Positions 6,338-22,684 of a stretch of DNA of 22,684 bases are shown one piece after another. The notes beneath the pieces were generated by a model that worked only from the letters and a program-made list of their open reading frames with translations, searched no databases and was not told the origin of the DNA. Source of the stretch: a virus (lineage: Duplodnaviria > Heunggongvirae > Uroviricota > Caudoviricetes); the IMG/VR virus record IMGVR_UViG_2711768076_000014, positions 1 through 22,684 of that record; one strand, 5' to 3'. Position 1 is the stretch's first letter, and the number at the start of each line of letters is the position of its first letter. The position numbers were made by a program, and so were the translations under genes.

Positions 6338-6341
<4 letters not shown>
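4785..6341 (+). CDS. hsdM: Type I restriction-modification N6-adenine DNA methyltransferase subunit HsdM, 518 aa
   Basis: SAM-binding [10 protein letters not shown] and catalytic NPPY ([12 protein letters not shown]); N-terminal HsdM-type domain; 4-bp ATGA overlap with hsdS. Confidence 0.9.
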
Positions 6342-7543
<1,202 letters not shown>

Positions 7544-11262: not shown

Positions 11263-12210
11263 TTAAATTTCATATTTTGAAATTTCGCTGATTACATCAT
11301 CCCCATATTTCTTAATCATGGAGGCAAAGAATTTATGTTCAATAAATTTCGCATAGCCTAATTCTCCTTTAAGGGTTAGAATTTCTTTCTCAGATAAAAC
11401 CCCACACACATAATAATGTATTTTACTTCTTAAAAGACGCTTTCTATCACGACCTAAAGACAAATAACCATCAGTCGTAATAGTTACACCAGTTACATGT
11501 CTATTAAACTTCCTTGAGGTAAAAACTGTTTTCTCATGGTTTATTTTAATATTCCTAAGATTTACTACGTTAAGAACTTCCCTTACTAACTTAGGAACAT
11601 CAAATAAAGCTCCTTTGACTTTGGTGCTAAACGTAAGATCATCAGCATACCTTGAGTAGGTAATACCCAAATCCTTGCATCTTTTCGATATTTCCTCATC
11701 GAAGAAATACATTACTGTATTTGAAATAATGGGAGAAGAAGGTGCTCCAACACTTAGGCGTAACGGGCTATTTCTTCTTAACTTCCAGAAGAAAAGATTT
11801 TTAAGAACAAAGATATCAGTATCAGTTAGTTCAACGCCATAATCTTTTAAGACAGATAAAAGATTATGGGGTTTGATACTCATAAAAAAGTTTTTAAAAT
11901 CCATTTTAAGCAAATAATCATTATTACAATGCATTAACGCATTAGATCTAATACTTTTATCGGCTTCATAAGCGAAAGCATTTTCATGAACTTTCAAATT
12001 AGCCAACATATGATTGATTACTACCTTCTGTAAGGCTTTAACTTGCCTAGCTGGTTGTGCAATTAATCTATATCCATTACCATTTCTTTTGGCGATAGGA
12101 TAAATTTTATATCTGCGTGGAATAGTAACAATATACCTTTTAGCCTCTTCTTCGCTAAGAAAAAGACCTTTTGAAATATAACTTAGCAACTCCATTCTAA
12201 GCCCCTCCAC
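11263..12210 (-). CDS. Retron-type reverse transcriptase, 315 aa
   Basis: RT blocks YRLIAQPARQVKALQKVV, LKMDFKNFFMSI, SVGAPSSPIISN, YSRYADDLTFS (YADD catalytic box) and VTGVTIT (retron VTG signature); size as for Ec73/Ec86-class retron RTs. Confidence 0.85.
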   Translation of the reverse strand: MEGLRMELLSYISKGLFLSEEEAKRYIVTIPRRYKIYPIAKRNGNGYRLIAQPARQVKALQKVVINHMLANLKVHENAFAYEADKSIRSNALMHCNNDYLLKMDFKNFFMSIKPHNLLSVLKDYGVELTDTDIFVLKNLFFWKLRRNSPLRLSVGAPSSPIISNTVMYFFDEEISKRCKDLGITYSRYADDLTFSTKVKGALFDVPKLVREVLNVVNLRNIKINHEKTVFTSRKFNRHVTGVTITTDGYLSLGRDRKRLLRSKIHYYVCGVLSEKEILTLKGELGYAKFIEHKFFASMIKKYGDDVISEISKYEI

Positions 12211-13183
12211 GCACGATATTGATTTGATTTAGAGCATTTTTCCTTTTTTTTGCAGTCTCGTCCATATCTTTAGCATCCATACTTAAGTAAGATTGTCGGA
12301 TTGCAACCTTAATATTCATAGAATCCTTTATTTTACCACTAGCACTGATACCAAATTTAAGTTTACTCTCTCTATGCCCTCGGGAATAGAAGTAGTCTGT
12401 ACCACTGTAAGATAATGATGAGGTTAATTTCATCTTTTCAAGCAAATAAAGTAAACGAGTTATTATTTTTTGTGGCACATCTATATCCATACAGTATAGT
12501 GCCCACTCTATTTCGCTTTTCTTGATTGGTTCTGATAAAAGGATTATTTCGTAAATCAATATAGCTAGGTGCCCAGTATTTTCAGGGTTATATCGCTCCG
12601 TTTTTTTTACACGTTTTAATCTAGAATGAATATCATGGTAGATAAGCTCAACCTCATCATATTTCATACGATCCGATTTTGGCCATGGATAAACTGATAC
12701 TGAGGCCTCATCTATTTTTTTAAGATACTCCAAAGGGCCTAAATATATAAAAGAAGATCTAGCAGGAATATTTTTTCGTTCATTTCCCTCAATCTCCTCA
12801 AATGGTGCGACTACATGCAATTTTTGAGCTAGAGACTTCCTATTAACAAATAATCCAAGCTCAACTAACGAACCTGCACTTTCTAAACAGATAACAACTA
12901 ATGTTGAAATATTTGCAATATCATCTTCAAAGCTCATTAGATCTGAATATGCCCCCTCTCTGAAGTAGTCATGGAAGTTCTCAGCTAAAATAAGAGAATC
13001 TGACAATTCAGGTTTGTGGCCTGCTACATAAGTAAATATGTGGTCTCGTACACTCATTGGAGTGGAATTTATCGGCCCACCACAAACAAAAATAATAGGA
13101 GGCATGAACTGAACAGTGAAATTTGAATATTTCAAATCTCCAAACTGCTCTTGTAATGCATTCATATATGCAGAATCACTCAC
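12197..13183 (-). CDS. Retron accessory/effector protein (type II-like, possibly nucleoside deoxyribosyltransferase-like plus DNA-binding), 328 aa
   Basis: Lies between the msd hairpin and the RT gene and overlaps the RT start by 14 bp; AT-rich like the RT gene; family assigned by context only. Start is GTG at 13183 or ATG at 13165. Confidence 0.6.
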   Translation of the reverse strand: MSDSAYMNALQEQFGDLKYSNFTVQFMPPIIFVCGGPINSTPMSVRDHIFTYVAGHKPELSDSLILAENFHDYFREGAYSDLMSFEDDIANISTLVVICLESAGSLVELGLFVNRKSLAQKLHVVAPFEEIEGNERKNIPARSSFIYLGPLEYLKKIDEASVSVYPWPKSDRMKYDEVELIYHDIHSRLKRVKKTERYNPENTGHLAILIYEIILLSEPIKKSEIEWALYCMDIDVPQKIITRLLYLLEKMKLTSSLSYSGTDYFYSRGHRESKLKFGISASGKIKDSMNIKVAIRQSYLSMDAKDMDETAKKRKNALNQINIVRGGA

Positions 13184-13204
13184 CCTTGTGACCCCCTACT
13201 CCAA

Positions 13205-13480
13205 AAGAAAAGGTGGCTAACCAGCCACCTTCGACCCCTTTACCTAAAGGATGCGCTTTAGACTTTCAGCAAGATCCTGAATGGAACGCAGTGGCATGAA
13301 GGATCTTGCTGAAAGTGCTAAAGCGCAACCCTAAATGTCCACAATAAATTAGTGTCTGGCGAAACGCCCGACAAGGATAAACCTGTTATCCCGCGCGTAA
13401 AGGTAGGGTTAGGATAGCAAAAGATGCGAGATTTTCAATAAGTAAGCGTACTGGCTGCCAGCAACCACCTAAACCATTGA
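13205..13480 (-). ncRNA. Retron msr-msd non-coding RNA (approximate bounds)
   Basis: Upstream of the effector gene: short stem-loops (ggataa/ttatcc 13374-13390; ggcg/cgcc about 13354-13364; aacccta/tagggtt) typical of msr, plus a 27-bp near-perfect hairpin at 13254..13325 typical of msd; a1/a2 repeats not found with confidence. Confidence 0.5.
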
Positions 13481-13810
13481 CATTTAAACAAAAATAAATC
13501 TAACAATTGAAAGCAATACCTTATTGAATACAGCATTCTTATATCTCTCTTGATATCGCAACATCACAATTATCACCGTTAGTGCGGGCAGCCCCGCACG
13601 CCTGCCCGCTTCGCTTAACAGACTGGTTTTCATGCACCTCATTAATCGTCTCAGAAGCCAGCACACAAGGGTTTTCTCGTCAAAAATGGTGCATAAGACT
13701 CATGCGTTTTCATGCGCCATAGACATGCACTCATGCGCTCTCATGTCAGCCAGGAAAAGGGGGTAAAAAATCCCGGTACTGGACCGGGATTACGTGGGCG
13801 TTCTTTCTAA

Positions 13811-14083
13811 TCAGACAGGAATCTGCTGACGGCTTGACAGTTTTGACGCGGAGCCATAGCGATTGAGCGTTTTCTGTTGTTTTTCCGGGGATTGTGCTTT
13901 GTCTGATAGCTGTTCATTGCGCCGGGGTTTCATGATTATCTTATCCACACTCTCCAGTGCCGTAAATGTGCAGGAACATTCCAGATTCTGGCACTGATAC
14001 CACGAGCGTTTAACTGACGGAGCTTCATAGGCTGCTGTTCTGGCGTGTGCAACTGTACCGCATTCCGGACATTTAAGTGCCAT
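13811..14083 (-). CDS. Ogr/Delta-family zinc-finger late-gene transcriptional activator, about 90 aa
   Basis: MALKCPECG...YQCQNLECSCTF matches the Cys4 Ogr/Delta pattern; AGGAG sits 8 nt before the ATG at 14083 (the six-frame ORF extends to a GTG at 14092). Confidence 0.8.
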   Translation of the reverse strand: MALKCPECGTVAHARTAAYEAPSVKRSWYQCQNLECSCTFTALESVDKIIMKPRRNEQLSDKAQSPEKQQKTLNRYGSASKLSSRQQIPV

Positions 14084-14088
14084 TAATA

Positions 14089-14640
14089 TCACTCCTGTAT
14101 ATCGTTAATGTCATTCAGGCGTTGCTGAAAACGCAGATGTTGTGCCGGGGTGTAAGAACCCTGGCAATCACGAATCATCCCGGGGTCAGGCATCAAACCG
14201 GATTCATCCAGGATCTCACGATAATCCCCGGCAATTTCAGGCGGTGTTATTGCCAGCTGGCGAACCAGAGCACTGCGTAATATACGGGACGCAACGTCAA
14301 CCCCTCCGCGCCCCTTCAGGAACGGAGCCAGTGCAGATGTCAGGGCTGCCCCATTCGCCTGCATAAAATTGCTGAGAGCGGCTTCTGTGCAGGCCTCCAT
14401 CAGTAAATGCTGCGAGTAAATGCATTCGCGCGCAGCACAGTTAATTTGCCATTTCAGCACATCCAGACGTTCCCGCAGTAATTCGAGCTGTCGGGCATAA
14501 TCTGCTGGTTTTTCTGTGGCAGCGAGGAGAGATGTTATCTGTTGTTCAACGGCTTTTCGGCTCTCATTATGTCCGGCCCACAGAATACGGGCATTCCGAA
14601 AACTGGTAAGTGCCTGGTCAGGCGTGCCTCGGGCCGTCAT
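14089..14640 (-). CDS. psu: Psu-like polarity-suppression / capsid-decoration protein, 183 aa
   Basis: Blocks LKWQINCAAR, FMQANGAALTSALAPFL and YTPAQHL resemble my recollection of P4 Psu (190 aa); ATGA overlap with the upstream gene. Confidence 0.55.
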   Translation of the reverse strand: MTARGTPDQALTSFRNARILWAGHNESRKAVEQQITSLLAATEKPADYARQLELLRERLDVLKWQINCAARECIYSQHLLMEACTEAALSNFMQANGAALTSALAPFLKGRGGVDVASRILRSALVRQLAITPPEIAGDYREILDESGLMPDPGMIRDCQGSYTPAQHLRFQQRLNDINDIQE

Positions 14641-15380
14641 ACTGCTTTCTCCTTCTCAGCAAGTTCCTGACGAACCTTAATTTTATGCATAGCTGCCGGA
14701 GAGAGTTGATTACTGAAATCCAGACGCGCCGCATAATCCGGGGCAACTCCCGCCAGTTTAAACACCGGGTCCTGCTCAGGCATCGCATCGTTAGCCAGAG
14801 CCGGTCTGGTGATATGTTTATGAATAAAGTCTTTCAGCACTGTGTCCGGGTCATTAACTGAATTCACCACACCCACAACGGCACTGGCTTCCCGGCCCAT
14901 TGTGGATTTAAGCAGGCTCAGCGTCTGAATAAGCGCTTTTCCATGCGACTGCATAAAATCCTCCCAGATTTGTTTTGCGCGAATATCCACAAGAATGTTA
15001 TGCGCGTGGATATACTTTCCGGCTAATTCTGCAGCTTTCTGCGGCAAAAGTGCATTTTCGCTTTCCTGAGCCGCCAGCAGCTCATCAAAATCCTCAAGCG
15101 TTTCTCGTCCCAGCGCAATTTCCGTGCGCAGTTTTTTCATTTCCTTTGAGACCACGCCCTGACTTTCACGAAACAGCGTGCGCCACTCCTCATTCAGTGT
15201 GTTCGTCGTGGCTTCCATTTCAGCGCGACGCTGGCGGATTGTCGCAATATTATCCGCTGCCGCTTTCTGCTGACGACGTGCTTCAAGCCATGCGTTTCTG
15301 GCTGTGTTCATGGTTTCCAGTGCCCGCTGCGTTACAGCCGGAAAAGTGGAAAGGTTGTTATTCACTGCGGTGTTGTTCAT
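14637..15380 (-). CDS. Sid-like external scaffold (capsid size determination) protein, 247 aa, tentative
   Basis: Size close to P4 Sid (244 aa), Ala/Glu/Arg-rich helical character, first gene of the operon with Psu and Ogr/Delta, preceded by AGGAG and TGT-N12-ACA dyads; no direct motif match recalled. Confidence 0.4.
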   Translation of the reverse strand: MNNTAVNNNLSTFPAVTQRALETMNTARNAWLEARRQQKAAADNIATIRQRRAEMEATTNTLNEEWRTLFRESQGVVSKEMKKLRTEIALGRETLEDFDELLAAQESENALLPQKAAELAGKYIHAHNILVDIRAKQIWEDFMQSHGKALIQTLSLLKSTMGREASAVVGVVNSVNDPDTVLKDFIHKHITRPALANDAMPEQDPVFKLAGVAPDYAARLDFSNQLSPAAMHKIKVRQELAEKEKAV

Positions 15381-15415
15381 GACTTCTCCTGTCGGGTTGG
15401 TTCGTTACGTCAATT

Positions 15416-15471
15416 GTGTCGTGGCTGACACAAGCACACTATCGGTGCTCAGTGTGTGGTGGCTGGCACAA
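15416..15471 (-). promoter_or_regulatory. Two TGT-N12-ACA dyads (putative Ogr/Delta-dependent late promoter of the sid-psu-delta operon)
   Basis: tgtGTCGTGGCTGACaca at 15416-15433 and tgtGTGGTGGCTGGCaca at 15454-15471, 36 to 82 bp upstream of the sid-like ATG; P2/P4 late promoters carry this element. Confidence 0.5.
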
Positions 15472-15558
15472 CGGACGCTTGCGGTTATTCAGACGTGGCT
15501 ATGAAAGCCAGCCAGATAAAAATGCCCTCTGTTTCAGTCTGCTTTATGTCCCTGATGC

Positions 15559-15747
15559 GGTGGAACAGGTGAAACATGTGTTACAGCTTTGTTTTATAAG
15601 GCATTTATATACACTGCACCGGTGGAACATCGCGGGTAACAAGGTGGAACAGCGGATTGGCTGGCGTTACATCTGTTCCACCTCACTATTTCAGAAGGTG
15701 GAACAGGTTCAGCCCTGTAAAATACGGTTGTTCCACCTGTTTCACCT
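15559..15747. repeat. Iteron array: at least 6 copies of GGTGGAACAG / CTGTTCCACC in both orientations (putative ori or crr)
   Basis: Copies at 15559, 15621 (variant), 15643, 15673 (inverted), 15697, 15728 (inverted), plus tgtttcacc at 15739; immediately downstream of the primase gene; resembles the P4 alpha-binding octamer TGTTCACC (from memory). Confidence 0.5.
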
Positions 15748-15780
15748 GTTACCCTTAATAAATAAGACTCACGCAAAGCC

Positions 15781-18453
15781 TTAACCCGGCACCTCGCTGT
15801 TGAAGACATAGAGCCTGCGGGGATTCATCTCTGGCGGGCGAATGGTTGTCTGGAGTTTGCCATCAGTGGAGGGCAGCAGGTATCCACGATCTGCGCACAG
15901 ACGCGCCACCTTGCGCGGGTCAAATCCCCTGCAGATTTCTTTCCAGCCGGACGGCATGACATAGAACGTAGTGACAGCTTCCGTGCCCTGCGCGGTACTG
16001 CCTTTCTCCACCCTGCGCCAGCCCACCATATTGCCGGGGCGGTTGCGCTCGTCATACCAGTCTGCAAAGCGGCTGTACTGATTCGCGGTAAAGAAACTGC
16101 GAACCTGCTCCAGTGCGGCGATATCTTCCTGATTGGCGGTGTGCCCGCGATCTTTCAGCCATGCGTTCAGGCAGACGCGGGTTGCCCGCAGTGCTTCACC
16201 CTCAGGCCAGCCGGTGATACCCAGACGGGTTGCCAGTTCACCTGCCATCGCCACCAGAGCAAAGCGGTTCACAGCCCGGCCCACCTGATTGCCTGCATCT
16301 TTCGGAGTCAGGGCGGCAGCATATTCCTTCATCAGCGATTTTGCCTGTGCCGTTAGTCCGTTAAGATCAGCGGTCAGTGCTTTCAGCCACTCCCGGAACG
16401 GCGAACCGTAGTAGCAGGACGTGGCCCATTCAAGATGCTCTGCCAGAGCCTTGCCGCTGTCGAAGCCGTGCAGCTCCTCAAAAACGCCAAACTTCCCGGA
16501 ATCGCTGGGGATCTGGATCATCCTGACTTCCATCCCGGCAAAAGTACGCTCACCGGCCTTTGCCGCATGTTCGGTCAGAGACAACTCGCCAGTTGAAAAG
16601 AACAACAGGCGCCAATGCTTACGGGTACGCAGCTCACCGTCCGTACCGGCACGGCCCTTGCCCTGACCGTTTGCCAGCATGTAGGCGATATTGCCTGCCT
16701 CGCGTCCGTCAACTTCCCGGATCTCATCAAGCATCATGGCGGCATCGTTGCGGCGGCTGGCGCATCCCTCCAGCGCGTTGCCGGTGGCCCGCCATGTCTG
16801 CCAGTAGTCAGGCCCGCCGCAGACGGAGGTTGCCGCTTTCATGGTGGTGGTCTTACCGTCTGTCGATTCCCCTTTGAGGTGGTAGCCGCCGCCGTCCATA
16901 CCAACCAGCCGTAACAGTGGTGCAGCAAAGGCCAGGCTGACAGCAAATGCCACGCGGGAGTTGCCGGTACAGTAGCGGGATACATGCTCCCGCCATTCCT
17001 CTGTTGTGCCCGACACGCGGAAATCACGCCCCTGCACGGAAGTGGTCTGGAGAATGACACCCTCTGCACCTTCACCGCTGACCTCATCCTGCAGGACGTA
17101 AACCTGACCATGCCAGCCAGTACGACTGACGCAGGTCACGCGGCGTTCCGGTTTACACAGTGAGATATATTCCATCAGGCGTGCGCGTGCCTCACCGGTG
17201 GTGCTGATATAAGACAGCCCGTTAACCAGCAATACCCGGCGCAGTTCCTCACCACTGCCGCTCAGCATTTCCATCGGCATCGCCCAGCGGCGACACTCAC
17301 CCCACGTATCTTCCCATTCCAGCAGTCGTCCGAAGTTACCGCCATCGGCATCGCAGGTGATTGCCGTCACGCGCAGCGGGCTGCATATTTTGACGTTCTG
17401 GATCTCCGTCTCACCGTTGCGCTGTACCTGCTTTTCATACCAGAGATATTCCTGGGTAAGACGGAACCCGTGCGGCAGTTGCGTGCGGCCCTCCCCGCAC
17501 AGCACCAGACCGTTACGAAAGGCTTCACGGGCGCGGGTAATACCGTGCTCCCGATGGAAGTCATTCCAGTCGGCCTTAATCTCTCCCGGTGGCAGCGTCA
17601 TCCAGCCGCCAACAGCTTTTGCCGCCCGTTCAGCAAAGGCTCTGCCGGGATTCTCACCCCCGTCCTGAAAATCGTTATCACCGGCGATGATAATTTTTAC
17701 CTCAGGCCAGCGTGCCCGCAGCGACTGCGCCACATTGGGCAGGTTGCCCGCAGATATGGCAGCCACTACGCATCCGGCAGTGAGCTGACTTACCGTCAGC
17801 GCCGTAGCGTAACCTTCGGTAATCACCACCTGTACCGGTGGTTCAGACGGTAACGGGCTGAGCGACACAAACGCGCCTTTCATCGTGCTGCCGGGCAGTA
17901 TGCTTTTTTCACCCGTCGGGGCGATAAGCTGTGCACCAGTCACGGCTCCGGTGTTGGTCGTGAGTGGTAACAGCAGGGAACCGGCAGGAAAATCCTTACC
18001 GCTGATATGCTGCACGCTTCCGGTCAGAGAGGCCGGGTATCCGGCGAACCCTTTTCCTGTCAGATAGGCGCTTTCTCCCGTGTGGCTCTCTTTCATCAGC
18101 GCCGCCACGGTAAGACCCATGTCGCGTTTAGGGGCTTTTTTTCTGGCAGGCTTAACAGGCAGTTCCTGCACATCCGGCACATTAAGCACCTGCGCCACCT
18201 CCTGCGCAGCCTTTCTGACGCTGTAACCGGTTACGAGCTTAACCAGATCCAGACCGTCACCATTGCCACACTGGCTGCAGATCCACGTCCCGCGCCCGTC
18301 AAGGTCATCAAGGCGAAAACGATCCTTGCCCCCACATTTCGGGCAGGGACCGTGCCTGCCGTTTTCAGGTACATCAATACGCAGCATCTGGAGAATAACG
18401 GGCCATTTCCCCCGTGCGGCGGCTGAAATCTGCGTAACCGTCTGTATTGTCAT
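15781..18453 (-). CDS. Phage/plasmid primase-helicase (P4 alpha-like), 890 aa
   Basis: N-terminal zinc-binding CPKCGGKDRF...CSQCGNGDG, Toprim-like IIAGDNDFQDGGENPG, P-loop GESTDGKTT; largest ORF of the element. Confidence 0.85.
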   Translation of the reverse strand: MTIQTVTQISAAARGKWPVILQMLRIDVPENGRHGPCPKCGGKDRFRLDDLDGRGTWICSQCGNGDGLDLVKLVTGYSVRKAAQEVAQVLNVPDVQELPVKPARKKAPKRDMGLTVAALMKESHTGESAYLTGKGFAGYPASLTGSVQHISGKDFPAGSLLLPLTTNTGAVTGAQLIAPTGEKSILPGSTMKGAFVSLSPLPSEPPVQVVITEGYATALTVSQLTAGCVVAAISAGNLPNVAQSLRARWPEVKIIIAGDNDFQDGGENPGRAFAERAAKAVGGWMTLPPGEIKADWNDFHREHGITRAREAFRNGLVLCGEGRTQLPHGFRLTQEYLWYEKQVQRNGETEIQNVKICSPLRVTAITCDADGGNFGRLLEWEDTWGECRRWAMPMEMLSGSGEELRRVLLVNGLSYISTTGEARARLMEYISLCKPERRVTCVSRTGWHGQVYVLQDEVSGEGAEGVILQTTSVQGRDFRVSGTTEEWREHVSRYCTGNSRVAFAVSLAFAAPLLRLVGMDGGGYHLKGESTDGKTTTMKAATSVCGGPDYWQTWRATGNALEGCASRRNDAAMMLDEIREVDGREAGNIAYMLANGQGKGRAGTDGELRTRKHWRLLFFSTGELSLTEHAAKAGERTFAGMEVRMIQIPSDSGKFGVFEELHGFDSGKALAEHLEWATSCYYGSPFREWLKALTADLNGLTAQAKSLMKEYAAALTPKDAGNQVGRAVNRFALVAMAGELATRLGITGWPEGEALRATRVCLNAWLKDRGHTANQEDIAALEQVRSFFTANQYSRFADWYDERNRPGNMVGWRRVEKGSTAQGTEAVTTFYVMPSGWKEICRGFDPRKVARLCADRGYLLPSTDGKLQTTIRPPEMNPRRLYVFNSEVPG

Positions 18454-18833
18454 ACTTCCCCCTGATACAACGTCACACCGGTACTGCAGAAGTCATCAAA
18501 GGCCGCCGGAAGCGTGCGGTACATCTCCGCCATCACTTCACAGCCGCGCGCGGTCAGTACCGGCGGCGCGGTCAGCAGTGACGGCTCCAGCATGTCAGTC
18601 AGCAGTGCCAGCGCGGCAGCGGCGCCCTGTGCTTCGCCGTACTCGTTAATCAGTACGCACTCGATATGCAGCGCAATGGCCATTTCAATACGCTCCACCG
18701 TCAGGCTGTGCGGACCATACTGATCACTGCCAGTTTCGTTCAGCATTTTCTGCCGCCATGCTGAAGCAATAGCCCGCCGGTAAAGCGCGGTGGTCATTTC
18801 TGCCGGGAAAATGGAAACCTGCGGCTGGTTCAT
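18450..18833 (-). CDS. Hypothetical P4-like small protein, 127 aa
   Basis: AGGAGG 6 nt upstream of ATG; stop overlaps the primase start (ATGA); start overlaps the upstream ORF stop. Confidence 0.5.
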   Translation of the reverse strand: MNQPQVSIFPAEMTTALYRRAIASAWRQKMLNETGSDQYGPHSLTVERIEMAIALHIECVLINEYGEAQGAAAALALLTDMLEPSLLTAPPVLTARGCEVMAEMYRTLPAAFDDFCSTGVTLYQGEV

Positions 18834-19114
18834 CTGGCACCTCCTTCAATCAGTGCGCAGCTGTGTGCAATATCCGTCAAATCTGCCAGCAGGTACTCCA
18901 TCAGCGCGGCGACACCATGCGCACAGCCAGCGTCCAGTGCTCCGGCCTGAGACGGGTATTCAGAAAAGAGAAGCTGGAGCATGTCGCAGGCATTTCTTGC
19001 GCGGGTCAGTTTTCCGAAACTGTCCTCTGACAACCCATAGGCAAAAGCACCGGTATTGTGTTTTTCAGGCAAAGTGTGGCCCTGAGCACCGTTGTGCCCG
19101 TTTGAAATATTCAT
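18830..19114 (-). CDS. Hypothetical P4-like small protein, 94 aa
   Basis: GGAG 6 nt upstream of ATG; translationally coupled to the downstream gene. Confidence 0.45.
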   Translation of the reverse strand: MNISNGHNGAQGHTLPEKHNTGAFAYGLSEDSFGKLTRARNACDMLQLLFSEYPSQAGALDAGCAHGVAALMEYLLADLTDIAHSCALIEGGAR

Positions 19115-19145
19115 CGTGGATTACTCCGTTTTCAGCGGTATTTTG

Positions 19146-19505
19146 TCAGAGAAACTTTGAATAGTGACCGTCGTCAGGCTCAGCAGAACGCCGTATGCTA
19201 CGCTCCCGCCAGCGGATAAATAGCACAGACGGATGCAGTGTCAGCGGGCCGGAACCACTACCGCCAGCAGGAGCTGGTGCAGGCTTCAAGAGCGGTACAT
19301 CAAACAGGCGCGTATACCGCTGTTCAAACCATGCCAGAGGGCAGGAAGAAAGCTGGTTGTCGCTGTCATGACGTATCAGCACTTCACAGCTGAATTCAGG
19401 ATTAACCAGCGCCACAGAGGGCGAGGCTTCTATTAATCGGATAATCGTGACCGTCCAGCCACGTTCATGCTGCCAGCGTTCGCCGGGGTGCGGATAATTA
19501 CGCAT
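19146..19505 (-). CDS. Hypothetical P4-like small protein, about 119 aa
   Basis: GGAGG 5 nt upstream of the ATG at 19505 (MRNYPHPGERWQ...); the six-frame ORF extends further to 19535. Confidence 0.45.
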   Translation of the reverse strand: MRNYPHPGERWQHERGWTVTIIRLIEASPSVALVNPEFSCEVLIRHDSDNQLSSCPLAWFEQRYTRLFDVPLLKPAPAPAGGSGSGPLTLHPSVLFIRWRERSIRRSAEPDDGHYSKFL

Positions 19506-19674
19506 GTTCACCTCCGCAGGGAATGCGCCCGGCAAAGCTCAGTACATAGTCCGGGGCAAGTCTGCGCCGCGCTGACCGCTCGTTATCTGCGGTGATCCTT
19601 AACATCACAGGACGGGCATTGCGTTGACTGCGGTTGATCGCCGCAAATAACCAGGTACACTTCTGTTTAGCCAT
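19498..19674 (-). CDS. Hypothetical small basic protein, about 58 aa
   Basis: GAGGT 7 nt upstream of the ATG at 19674 (MAKQKCTWLF...); stop overlaps the next gene start; C-terminal part of a longer six-frame ORF that I otherwise reject. Confidence 0.35.
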   Translation of the reverse strand: MAKQKCTWLFAAINRSQRNARPVMLRITADNERSARRRLAPDYVLSFAGRIPCGGEHA

Positions 19675-19750
19675 CTTCGTTACCTCATTTAGCGGATTGG
19701 TCAGAAGCCCGGTTAGTGTTGCTGCACTGTCGGGCTTCGCACTCACAAGG

Positions 19751-19840
19751 TGAATCGCACCTTTAATTTTAAAGCTACCCTTAAGTGAATCGCACTTCAA
19801 GCTTTTTATTATCATTTTTTTTGCATATACTGAATCGCAC
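19751..19840. promoter_or_regulatory. Three direct copies of TGAATCGCAC in the divergent control region
   Basis: Exact 10-mers at 19751-19760, 19786-19795 and 19831-19840, between the leftward small-gene cluster and the rightward 61-aa gene; the last copy overlaps a TATACT -10-like hexamer (19826-19831). Confidence 0.4.
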
Positions 19841-19861
19841 CTAACGCGAGGAGATCCAGTA

Positions 19862-20047
19862 ATGGCAACGAGTTCAACTAACAACAAGTCGCAGCAACTT
19901 AATGCTCGTTTCCCACATGATGTAGTTGCAGAATTAGAAAGCAACCTTGAAGATGGAGAAACGAAAGCGCAATTCATTGTTACGGCTGTAAAAGGCGAGA
20001 TTAAACGCCGACAGCGCAGGAAAAATAAGCCAGAGCAAGGAAGTTGA
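19862..20047 (+). CDS. Small putative DNA-binding regulator, 61 aa, basic C-terminus
   Basis: AGGAG 8 nt before ATG; the only plus-strand gene in the P4-like module, divergent from the small-gene cluster; basic tail KRRQRRKNK. Confidence 0.45.
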   Translation: MATSSTNNKSQQLNARFPHDVVAELESNLEDGETKAQFIVTAVKGEIKRRQRRKNKPEQGS

Positions 20048-20143
20048 ATAGAGAAGCCAACAGACGTTCTCTCTGTTTCCATGTTAATTTCAGTAAGCGA
20101 CAATATTTTTAAGCCCACAAATTCATTATGTCGGGCTTTTTTA

Positions 20144-20374
20144 TTAGTGATTTTCATATCGCTCACCACGAGAGGCATATATTTGCTCTTGAATCCAGTG
20201 ATCCACTTCGCTTTCAACAAATGAAATTGCACGAGTTCCTATTTTCACCGGACGGGGAAATGTATTGTTTGCAAGCTGTTTGTAAAGCCATGCCTTGCTA
20301 CGCTGAACGCGTCTTAAGACCTCTTTTGCTGAGATAAGAGTCTGATTATCTGAAAAGCTGTTTGCATATTCCAT
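20144..20374 (-). CDS. alpA: AlpA-family phage transcriptional regulator / excisionase-like HTH protein, about 76 aa
   Basis: LISAKEVLRRVQRSKAWLYKQLANNTFPRPVKIGTRAISFVESEVDHWI is the classic AlpA HTH; GGAG 7 nt before the ATG at 20374 (the six-frame ORF extends to 20419). Confidence 0.8.
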   Translation of the reverse strand: MEYANSFSDNQTLISAKEVLRRVQRSKAWLYKQLANNTFPRPVKIGTRAISFVESEVDHWIQEQIYASRGERYENH

Positions 20375-20753
20375 CTTGTTACTCCGTGTTCTACTTAAGT
20401 TCACGGTGACTTTAAACACTGGGAAAAAGTGATTCTAGTGATAATGGAATCTATTAAGACAAATATTGATTCTATTGAAAAACAATAATCTCCACTGAAA
20501 AAAGAAGTAATATTCATATGAAAGAACACGGAGAGAAGGAAATGCACAAAAAAAAAAACAAAATCAATAGAATTCATATGGATAGGATGGAAAATCAAAA
20601 AATCATATGTCAAAAGGTATTATTGCATTTTAACGATTCATATTACCTAGGAATTAGCACAGTATTACACCATATTACATCGTATTACCCCCTATAGCCC
20701 GTTAGAGCCTCTTGTGGCCCTTCTATTGAGAGATAGCCAGAAAATTAATAAAT

Positions 20754-21392
20754 TTACTCTCCGTATTTTATAATGTCTTTCCCAAGCTTTATTTTCTTAT
20801 AAAACGTAGCTTTTTTAACCCCTTTCATTAGAATCTCATTCTCATTACAAAAAGAAACAATATCATTATATATAACACTATTATCGCTATAACTTACCTT
20901 TCCATGTCTCTTAAGCAATTCAATTAGTAAATAAATTAATTTACAACTATAATTATCCTCATCATCTTTTCTGTACTGCCCTCTACCATTACTCCTTAAT
21001 TTTTTACCAACTTCATATAATTCACTTCCTCCTAACGTCATTAGAATATCACTCCAATCTTTATTTTTTACCTGTTGTCGTAATGCGTTCTCAATTCTCT
21101 CCTTAATCTCCACAGGTACAATACCTTCCCTCTGAAAGATATAAGCGGCAGTTAATAATAAGTTCGCCTCCACTTTTTGCGTGGCGGATACGTTTTTATA
21201 TTCATTAATTAATTGTAGATTTCTGGTTATTGCCTTTCTTAATCTAATAACCTCTTTTAATTGAACCTCAGTCAATTCATCATTTTCGGTATCATAGTCA
21301 AAACCATTCATAGCAAGCGCCACTTCGTGTGGCGTTATGTAAGTTAACCTATTAAAATAAAACAAATTATTATCAAATTGAGTATTATTCAT
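20754..21392 (-). CDS. Hypothetical AT-rich cargo protein, 212 aa
   Basis: GGAGAG 6 nt before ATG; starts 30 bp downstream of the integrase stop; visibly AT-rich and Lys/Asn/Ile-rich compared with neighbouring P4-like genes; no motif recognised. Confidence 0.6.
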   Translation of the reverse strand: MNNTQFDNNLFYFNRLTYITPHEVALAMNGFDYDTENDELTEVQLKEVIRLRKAITRNLQLINEYKNVSATQKVEANLLLTAAYIFQREGIVPVEIKERIENALRQQVKNKDWSDILMTLGGSELYEVGKKLRSNGRGQYRKDDEDNYSCKLIYLLIELLKRHGKVSYSDNSVIYNDIVSFCNENEILMKGVKKATFYKKIKLGKDIIKYGE

Positions 21393-21421
21393 TTAAATCT
21401 CTCCGCAGCCCCCAATGGTAA

Positions 21422-22684
21422 TTATTTTCCATGCATACGCGCAAAATCATATGGTGTGACAGATCCATTCTTATTAGCATCAATATAATCAGCCCACCAC
21501 TGCAGCATTAATCTTCTTTCTTCAAGATATTCGGAAGTATGCATATATGAACCTTTCACATTTTTTCGTTCAACGTGGCTTAACTGTCTTTCAATGGCAT
21601 CATCATTCCATAGTTTCGACTCACTTAGCGCACCACGCGCCATAGTTCTAAACCCATGACCACATACTTCAGTTTTCGTATCATATCCCATTACACGTAA
21701 GGCGTTATTTACTGTATTTTCACTCATTACTTTTTTAGGATCATGATCGCTGGGAAATATAACCTCACCTTTACCACTCAAGGCATGTAAACGTTTAAAA
21801 ATATCAAATGCTTGTTTGCTAAGCGGAACAATATGTTCAGTTTTCATCTTCATCCCACGCTCAGAGTGTTTTACGCCGGGAATAGGCTTACGAATTCCGG
21901 GTATTGTCCACTCGCTTCGTTCAAAGTTAACCTCACTCCAGCGAGCAAAACGCATCTCACTTGAACGTATAAATGTGAGTAGCGTTAATTCAACGGCAAG
22001 CCGTGTCATTAGTCGCCCTTTATAGCGTGATAGTCTTTCAAGAAGCTCAGGGATTCTTTTTGGGGGTAGTGCTGGGTGGTGGGTTGCTTTAACGCTTAAA
22101 AGCGCTCCAGCCATATCGCATGCAGGATTTGATTCAAGGAGGTCATTCTGCACACCAAAACGCATAATTGCGGTTACGCGCTGCATCAGTCGCTGCGCGA
22201 CATCATGTTTACCCGCCGTATCGACAGCTTTGATTGGATTGAGAAGCTGGCTGGTTCTCAACGTTCTGGCATCGATTTGACCTATCGAGGGGAAAATATA
22301 CTGCTCAAGTGTCAGCAGAACACGACGGCTATGATCTTCGCTCCAAGTAAGGTTACTTGCGTGCCATTGCCTTGCGATAGTTTCAAATAAATATGCCCCC
22401 TCAATTTCAGCTTGTGCCCCCTTTTGCTCAGCTTTGGGGTCAATACCCTGAGACAACAATTTCTTTGCTGCATCGCGCTTACCCCGCGCTTCAGCCAAAG
22501 TGACCGTCGGGTATACACCAAAAGCGAGTCGATCTTCCTTTTTGTCAGAGGGGCGGCGATATTTCATGCGCCAGTACTTAGAACCTTTAGGGGAGACCTC
22601 AAGATACAAACCGCCTCCATCAGCCATTTTATAAGCTTTCTCTTTCGGCTTTGCGGTCTCTATCTGGCGAGCGTTGAGTTTCAT
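21422..22684 (-). CDS. int: P4-type tyrosine integrase, 420 aa
   Basis: N-terminal MKLNARQIETAKPKEKAYKMADGGGLYLEVSPKGSKYWRMKYR is the P4-integrase arm-binding signature; C-terminal catalytic region with HGFRTMARG and a downstream Tyr; start codon at the window edge, tRNA presumably just beyond. Confidence 0.9.
   Translation of the reverse strand: MKLNARQIETAKPKEKAYKMADGGGLYLEVSPKGSKYWRMKYRRPSDKKEDRLAFGVYPTVTLAEARGKRDAAKKLLSQGIDPKAEQKGAQAEIEGAYLFETIARQWHASNLTWSEDHSRRVLLTLEQYIFPSIGQIDARTLRTSQLLNPIKAVDTAGKHDVAQRLMQRVTAIMRFGVQNDLLESNPACDMAGALLSVKATHHPALPPKRIPELLERLSRYKGRLMTRLAVELTLLTFIRSSEMRFARWSEVNFERSEWTIPGIRKPIPGVKHSERGMKMKTEHIVPLSKQAFDIFKRLHALSGKGEVIFPSDHDPKKVMSENTVNNALRVMGYDTKTEVCGHGFRTMARGALSESKLWNDDAIERQLSHVERKNVKGSYMHTSEYLEERRLMLQWWADYIDANKNGSVTPYDFARMHGK

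Follow-up and report, generated by a model that had tools for sequence, protein, structure and literature searches.

Three operator-like boxes at the divergent promoters of a P4-like satellite and their predicted recognition by an adjacent 61-aa protein

A stretch of 22,684 nucleotides (positions 1 to 22,684 of IMG/VR record IMGVR_UViG_2711768076_000014; here called the window) carries the same 10-mer three times between two divergently transcribed gene groups, which raises the question of what these repeats are for and which protein reads them. The window represents an E. coli chromosomal island, a satellite of the P4-like kind inserted at a tRNA-Leu gene; the island region tested is 100% identical to the chromosome of E. 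coli strain EC11, and this allele is present in 333 of 5,426 complete E. coli genomes. Its genes include int (21422-22684, -) at one end, a 212-aa ORF, and an AlpA/Vis-like gene (20144-20374, -). The gene to the right of the repeats (19862-20047, +; start 19862) encodes a 61-aa protein of the YlcI/YnfO family that is predicted to be a repressor of the ribbon-helix-helix (RHH; Arc/MetJ/CopG) superfamily, and is followed by an intrinsic terminator (20111-20147, +; hairpin 20111-20138, then UUUUUUAUU) with a fold z-score of only -1.7. To the left, an icd-like gene of 58 aa (19498-19674, -; NF033153, 84 bits) is the first of the P_L operon, which continues with three small ORFs and a TOPRIM-DUF927 primase gene (15781-18453, -). 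The satellite also encodes homologues of sid, psu and delta, a retron, and a type I R-M system.

The last two of these call for brief description. The retron region, which is defence cargo of the satellite, occupies 13197-13404 (-) and 11263-13183 (-) of the window. Its Rfam matches are below threshold (msr, 42 bits, E 7.8e-5; STnc400, 55 bits) and adjoin two genes: one that RefSeq annotates as 'retron St85 family effector', and an ORF of 315 aa that is presumably the reverse transcriptase. Between ORFs of 518 aa and 1038 aa, read as hsdM and hsdR, there is an ORF of 401 aa (6338-7543), which would be hsdS from its size and position. This ORF contains three in-frame tandem copies (6836-6871, +) of CTTACCGCTGAG, encoding Leu-Thr-Ala-Glu, a repeat of the TAEL type, whose copy number sets the length of the recognition spacer in type IC R-M systems such as EcoR124I/II.

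The original prediction, made from the sequence of the window, was that three exact 10-mers lie between the leftward small-gene/primase cluster and the 61-aa gene, one of them overlapping a -10-like hexamer, and each of these statements is borne out. The 10-mer TGAATCGCAC occurs without mismatch at 19751-19760, 19786-19795, and 19831-19840, always on the + strand and with spacings of 35 and 45 bp; there is no further exact copy in the 22.7-kb window, and the sole copy with one mismatch is within hsdM. When the 187-bp intergenic region was shuffled with dinucleotides preserved, any 10-mer was present three times in only 17 of 20,000 shuffles. The flanking gene starts are 19674 (icd-like gene, -) and 19862 (61-aa gene, +), and the hexamer is TATACT (19826-19831), the last base of which is the first T of copy 3. 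The true unit is an 11-bp box, GTG-N5-CAC, which here is GTG-AATCG-CAC; copies 1 and 2 are GTGAATCGCAC, while copy 3 is CTGAATCGCAC. Copies 1 and 2 are surrounded by the palindromes AAGGTG-AATCG-CACCTT (19747-19763) and AAGTG-AATCG-CACTT (19783-19797). A CRP-type site was considered and rejected by eye, the arm spacing being wrong and the centre co-varying with the element's own protein.

For comparison, 25 loci encoding relatives of the 61-aa protein were collected from GTDB genomes and by exact-protein look-ups, in Escherichia, Citrobacter, Morganella, Proteus, Dickeya, Pectobacterium, Xenorhabdus, Cedecea, Siccibacter, and Atlantibacter; since the loci were sampled through the protein, elements with the boxes and without the protein would be missed. 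All 25, from at least 10 genera, have the same layout upstream of the gene at the same offsets from the ATG, and the DNA between boxes and promoter hexamers diverges freely from Escherichia to Xenorhabdus. Box 1 is at about -113 to -101 (-111 in most loci) and is followed by a leftward -10 hexamer, TA[AG]nnT, at -90 to -85. Box 2 is at -78 to -66 (about -77 in 25 of 25), inside a 17-bp spacer that ends at a leftward -35 hexamer, TTGA[AGC]G, at -67 to -62. The rightward -35 is at about -59 to -54 (TTTACA in subfamily 2, T-rich in the window) and the rightward -10 (TATACT, CATAAT, or TATAAT) at -36 to -31, its last T being the first base of the 10-mer of box 3 (offset -31). A GGAG Shine-Dalgarno sequence follows box 3 in all loci. 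The boxes are confined to the control region of each element, with none elsewhere.

In the window, the predicted leftward promoter P_L (19772-19800, -) consists of a -35 TTGAAG (19800-19795), the 17-bp spacer, and a -10 TAGCTT (19777-19772); it would initiate near 19764 and is predicted to drive the icd-like gene, the three small ORFs, and the primase gene. The predicted rightward promoter P_R (19803-19831, +) has a weak T-rich -35 (19803-19808) and the -10 TATACT (19826-19831), would initiate near 19838, and precedes the Shine-Dalgarno sequence GAGGAG of the 61-aa gene (19848-19853, +). Both match the sigma-70 consensus weakly (P_L in 4/6 and 3/6 positions; P_R with a poor -35), and a generic promoter/terminator scan called neither of them, P_L because its score is under the cut-off of that tool. 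Positions T1, T2, G3, A4, and G6 of the P_L -35 and T1, A2, and T6 of its -10 are invariant in the 25 loci, and the same hexamer pattern is present in L027 and L028. Conservation of the repeats in related elements had been proposed as one of the points on which the original prediction should stand or fall, and the repeats are kept; the wider description, operator-like repeats at a divergent promoter acting as a control switch, is supported by the fixed offsets to two promoters throughout the 25 loci. The leftward promoter, and a candidate antisense RNA over the icd start, are additional to that first reading.

The positions of the boxes relative to these promoters suggest how they could act. 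Box 1 (O_L1, 19750-19760; GTGAATCGCAC at the centre of a palindrome) would correspond to about +2 to +18 in a transcript from the predicted P_L, box 2 (O_L2, 19785-19795; GTGAATCGCAC) is inside the 17-bp P_L spacer, and box 3 (O_R, 19830-19840; CTGAATCGCAC) takes in the final two bases of the P_R -10 and reaches about +2/+3. The boxes therefore overlap core elements of both predicted promoters, and P_R would drive the repressor gene, as in an autoregulated switch. The left arm of box 3 reads CTG and not GTG because the -10 sequence constrains its bases, and box 3 is also deviant in subfamily 2 (ATGACTCCCAC). Neither 35 nor 45 bp, the distances between the boxes, is a whole number of helical turns, and the spacing thus gives no sign of cooperative binding. 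Box 1 is inverted in L013, L015, L016, L017, L021, L023, L025, and L029, and is about 10 bp closer, placed on the P_L -10 in a mirror image of box 3 at P_R, in L013, L015, and L017 (all Xenorhabdus) and in L027. The ability of box 1 to flip without loss of the site favours a DNA site read by a symmetric protein, such as a dimer. Box 3 or box 2 is degenerate in a few loci (L023, L017, L021, L031), which fits weak autoregulation and equally neutral decay. The control region of L028 (Enterobacter) has four boxes, the extra one being an inverted copy between box 2 and the P_R -10.

Palindromes in a transcribed region could instead be RNA hairpins that act in the transcripts and not as DNA sites. 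Boxes 1 and 2 can form stems of 5-6 bp, and box 1 folds in the P_L leader and, together with its T-rich tail, was flagged as terminator-like on the + strand; that flag was attributed to a palindromic operator beside the A/T-rich -10 region, and box 1 was rejected as a terminator. The remaining evidence makes hairpins a very improbable explanation. Box 2, in a promoter spacer, would be transcribed from neither predicted promoter, box 3 is unable to form a stem, and flips of box orientation are tolerated. Moreover, the GTG/CAC 'stem' is invariant, while the 'loop' is the same among the three copies of one element and different between elements, which is what recognition by a protein, rather than folding into a stem-loop, would produce.

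The box centre varies, in about eight classes, in step with the strand by which the 61-aa protein is predicted to read DNA, while the GTG/CAC arms of the box and R16 of the protein are constant. The strand QQLNARFP is found with GTGAATCGCAC in the window and in 14 loci (L002-L015), and RQKTAR[IV]P with GTGACT[CT][CG]CAC in nine loci (L016 and L019-L026). Single loci provide the other pairs: QFMTARVP with GTGATACACAC (L017), KKLEARVP with three copies of GTGTCAGCCAC (L027), QQRTVRIP with three copies of GTGAATCCCAC (L029), QMTTIRVP with GTGATATACA[CT] (L030), QQIGARFP with boxes of the GTGAACCGCA type (L028), and LQVSVRLP with two copies of GTGAACACCAC (L031). P0084, an example of a subfamily-2 protein, has QKTARVP and would be expected to act at GTGACTCCCAC promoters and not at those with GTGAATCGCAC. 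When all other proteins of the window were searched by tblastn, only the 61-aa protein proved common to the loci that have identical boxes; for the remaining products, AlpA, primase, and integrase among them, these loci gave either no detectable match or less than 50% identity.

The original prediction had named two candidate binders, the 61-aa protein and AlpA, and the co-variation of the boxes with the N-terminal strand of the former, together with its predicted RHH fold, supports only the first. Recognition by the AlpA/Vis-like protein (20144-20374) would have a precedent in P4, where Vis binds near P_LL and is a DNA-binding regulator of the late promoters. The AlpA gene is adjacent in the window, and AlpA activates PICI genes (PMC6092414). 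The same three boxes are present, however, with no AlpA detectable within 4-8 kb in L002, L004-L008, and L010-L014, Pectobacterium included; AlpA went undetected in 11 of 14 sampled loci of the TGAATCGCAC type, and the Pectobacterium locus lacks it over 8 kb. Where other loci do have an AlpA, its identity is only 36-56% and it lies behind other genes at a distance of 1-2 kb, and it is the 61-aa protein and not AlpA that the box sequence follows. AlpA is thus hardly credible as the protein for which these sites exist, and the binder of the boxes would be the 61-aa protein.

That protein scores 65.7 bits with NCBIfam NF041551 (YlcI_YnfO_N), well above the curated cut-off of 30 (E 2.8e-18; residues 9-50), and its RefSeq annotation is likewise YlcI/YnfO family. 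The family is small, an exhaustive profile search having found only 92 cluster representatives, and Pfam assigns no family, including RHH, to the window protein at threshold. An AlphaFold2 model of the monomer, built from an alignment of 60 of the 92 representatives, has a pLDDT of 86.6 (94-96 for residues 11-50) and the beta-alpha-alpha topology of an RHH protein: an extended N-terminal segment followed by helices 19-27 and 35-55. The strand comprises about residues 11-18, QQLNARFP, in which R16 and P18 (of Q-L-N-A-R-F-P) are invariant; polar and hydrophobic residues alternate along it, as in RHH proteins. The turn is G32-E33-T34, with E33 invariant, which fits the G-x-[ST] turn that N-caps the second RHH helix, and a basic tail follows helix 35-55. 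Remote members of the family match RHH families in Pfam below cut-offs (Arc, 3.2e-4; CopG_antitoxin, 4.6e-4; RHH_1, 2.9e-3; RHH_5, 5e-3). Alignment of the family to Arc by hhalign (probability 32%, E 4.8e-4) pairs QQLNARFPHDVV with PQFNLRWPREVL of Arc, the sequence of which was verified against 1arq, in a register that puts Q12, N14, and R16 on Q9, N11, and R13, the Arc residues that contact bases in the Arc-operator complex. Searches of PDB sequences with the protein and the family profile (phmmer and hmmsearch) returned matches at chance level only (phi29 p16.7; 3no7, E 0.16), and hhalign against an unverified CopG sequence was uninformative (probability 5%). The sequence links to RHH families are individually weak; taken with the AlphaFold2 model, the sub-threshold matches and the alignment to Arc make the RHH assignment well supported at the level of the predicted fold. 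Dimerisation is presumed, and DNA binding would follow from the co-variation of box and protein.

Several relatives extend the description of this family. Variants of 103 aa in L028 (Enterobacter) and P0080 (Yersinia) have a C-terminal helical extension of about 45 aa. In a PICI-like island of E. coli (L021/L022, 4679-5041), a 120-aa homologue of the Terminase_2 small subunit has a weak N-terminal match to DUF3950 (YlcI/YnfO-type), and the same small DNA-binding domain may therefore serve small terminase subunits; in K-12, ylcI is presumably upstream of nohD. Literature searches for YlcI/YnfO/DUF3950, for P4-like elements with RHH, and for PICIs with RHH found no functional study, and no paper was found that describes the RHH/three-box cassette. 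A '75-aa protein absent from P4' (PMC8628076) was considered as the same gene and rejected, as it lies between epsilon and alpha.

The boxes adjoin the replication operon, and a second possibility is that they are replication-origin iterons bound by the primase/helicase in the manner of P4 alpha. The P4 ori/crr does have short repeated motifs, among them three tandem 10-mers, and alpha binds type-1 repeats in both ori and crr. Against this, the same box types are found alongside unrelated primases or none: the primases at box loci are TOPRIM-DUF927, DUF927 only, or D5_N/Pox_D5, and the elements themselves are P4-like, PICI-like, cf-PICI-like with a D5 primase (Proteus), or a Pectobacterium remnant beside fis. 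The positions of the boxes are also locked to promoter hexamers. The window has, in addition, a separate and better iteron candidate in GGTGGAACAG, of which seven copies with at most one mismatch, in both orientations, are clustered at 15559-15746, when 0.9 copies would be expected in the entire window. They are in the gap between the end of the primase gene and sid, just downstream of the former, where P4 has crr, and they resemble the type-1 iteron bound by P4 alpha (GGTGAACA; TGTTCACC). By this likeness and this placement the cluster is likely to be the ori/crr of the satellite. As a reading of the three boxes, iterons are highly unlikely.

The explanation that best accommodates these observations, to which a probability of about 0.78 was assigned, is that the three boxes would be operators for dimers of the adjacent 61-aa RHH protein, which would thereby silence the replication operon and limit its own synthesis. 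With repressor on box 2 in the P_L spacer and on box 1 over the start site, RNA polymerase would be kept off P_L, so that the icd-like gene, the small ORFs, and the primase gene would be silent and the integrated satellite quiescent. Binding to box 3, at the -10 and start of P_R, would provide negative autoregulation. Box 3 is probably a weaker site, since its left arm is imperfect and must also spell the -10, and it would be occupied once P_L is already shut. Transcripts that leak from P_L could be mopped up by the candidate antisense RNA over the icd ribosome-binding site. Derepression by a helper phage might occur through an anti-repressor or through AlpA-dependent read-through from upstream. 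Functionally, the region would then be a classical autoregulated repressor/operator switch, and its portable core would comprise the RHH gene, the three boxes at back-to-back promoters, the antisense RNA candidate, and icd.

Three operators between divergent promoters also resemble the arrangement in lambda, and a second, Cro-like factor encoded in the P_L operon might share the operators, or even be their main user, in a two-protein bistable switch. There are several small uncharacterised ORFs after icd that could encode one, but they are not conserved where the boxes are identical. Conservation among the P_L products is limited to the Icd-like one, and Icd is a cell-division inhibitor, not a DNA binder. 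A second protein of this kind is unlikely, if somewhat less so than hairpins, AlpA sites, or iterons.

The operator switch may be accompanied by control at the RNA level. A candidate cis-antisense RNA of about 77 nt (19669-19745, +) lies over the Shine-Dalgarno sequence and start codon of icd, with counterparts at the corresponding position in loci L002-L031. Its hairpin 1 (19670-19701, +), predicted by RNAalifold, has an anti-Shine-Dalgarno CCUC in the loop, and hairpin 2 (19704-19738, +) is between box 1 and the icd start; a putative promoter on the same strand consists of TTGATC (19634-19639), a 16-bp spacer, and TACACT (19656-19661). In the RNAalifold consensus of both hairpins 13 of 22 pairs are compensatory. 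Hairpin 2 is conserved, with 96.8% of cells paired, a value reached by 0 of 500 shuffles, and six pairs with double changes. Of its pairs, 23 are G.T and would form only in a + strand RNA, versus one A.C, which assigns the structure to an RNA that runs rightward, antisense to the P_L leader. In 24 of 25 loci a TAnnnT hexamer begins 41-44 nt before a TGGT that is invariant, regardless of the gene family encoded opposite; the exception is L020, which has lost the leftward operon. This -10-like hexamer is the only part of the putative antisense promoter that is positionally conserved, and a universal -35 was not established. A U-run follows hairpin 2 in many loci and is absent in the window. In eight of eight further loci tested, the first P_L gene is Icd-like.

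The antisense candidate matches no Rfam family; a match of its hairpin to symR was at chance level (E 0.36, 24.6 bits versus a gathering score of 61) and was rejected as evidence of membership. The RNAs of P4-type immunity were searched for in the same way. Neither C4 (RF01695) nor isrK (RF01394) has a match at E<=1 in window positions 13000-22684, and neither reaches its gathering score in L004, L013, L019, or L021, whereas P4 as a positive control gave 74.9 bits for C4 and 60.8 bits for isrK. Because no CI RNA was found in the window or in the four sampled loci, the elements with the RHH cassette are regarded as a family without P4 RNA immunity.

Comparison with P4, the textbook satellite with RNA-based immunity, shows how far the two control regions correspond. 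As in the P4 immunity region, the leftward early operon is downstream of vis/alpA and has icd first and primase last; Icd is 54% identical to that of P4 and int 72%, and DUF5375 is present. However, P4 has neither the 61-aa gene nor the boxes, and it relies on a processed CI RNA and premature termination, where the satellite studied here is predicted to have a protein repressor and has a candidate cis-antisense RNA. The cassette takes the place of the P_LE-CI RNA-icd region of P4 and is not homologous to it.

Closer parallels for the regulatory logic are found outside P4. In immI of P22, the RHH repressors Arc and Mnt act at the divergent promoters P_ant and P_mnt, but there is no significant homology by HMMER, P22 has one 21-bp operator bound by a tetramer where here there are three separate 11-bp GTG-N5-CAC boxes, and the controlled gene is an antirepressor instead of a satellite replication/icd operon. 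Plasmid pMV158, in which copy control combines the RHH protein CopG with an antisense RNAII acting on repB, offers an analogy for an RHH repressor together with an antisense RNA on a replication operon. CopG and repB share a transcript, made from the very promoter that CopG represses, while the present repressor is divergently transcribed; the antisense target is an initiator in pMV158 and an icd-like gene here, and CopG has no sequence homology to the cassette. The Stl and Rpr proteins of SaPIs and PICIs are larger, unrelated helix-turn-helix repressors, and their removal by helper-phage proteins has been shown. Like them, the 61-aa repressor is predicted to keep its island silent. The Stl/Rpr module, with its divergent str-xis-pri-rep operon (PMC6092414), is also alike in layout, both it and the cassette being divergent regulatory pairs that separate the int side of a satellite from its replication module. 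For Gram-negative PICIs, the global repressor was described in 2018 as 'unclear', with AlpA as activator (PMC6092414).

The cassette also exists apart from any recognisable satellite. In eight Pectobacterium species and one Dickeya species it lies beside dusB-fis as an isolated remnant (L032/L033, 7442-8186; L004-L012), with the boxes unchanged except for a single base in box 3 of L011. The Pectobacterium remnant has two small leftward ORFs, and a Ser/Thr kinase and PP2C phosphatase pair follows the cassette; integrase, primase, and AlpA are all absent over 8 kb. Such persistence suggests independent maintenance of the remnant cassette, possibly in the manner of an addiction module. A broader and tentative proposal, which may well not hold in full, is that the RHH gene, three-box promoter, antisense RNA, and icd-like gene could form a portable master repressor/immunity module of many Gram-negative satellites, namely P4-like elements without CI RNA, PICI-like islands, and capsid-forming PICI-like islands. 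Its specificity classes, about eight or more, would then be immunity groups, helpers would induce by neutralising the repressor, and the module might also provide addiction of a toxin-antitoxin-like kind around Icd.

With respect to satellite biology, these results indicate that, in a large group of P4-like elements, RNA immunity has given way to a small protein repressor with three operators, and the same cassette would also serve PICI-like islands with unrelated primases. The 61-aa protein is a concrete candidate for the global repressor of Gram-negative PICIs, and its predicted role would give a function to the uncharacterised YlcI/YnfO family. The matched variants of strand and operator centre constitute a data set from which rules of RHH recognition, and orthogonal repressor/promoter pairs, may be derived, and the RNA predicted over the toxic icd gene is a new candidate antisense RNA.
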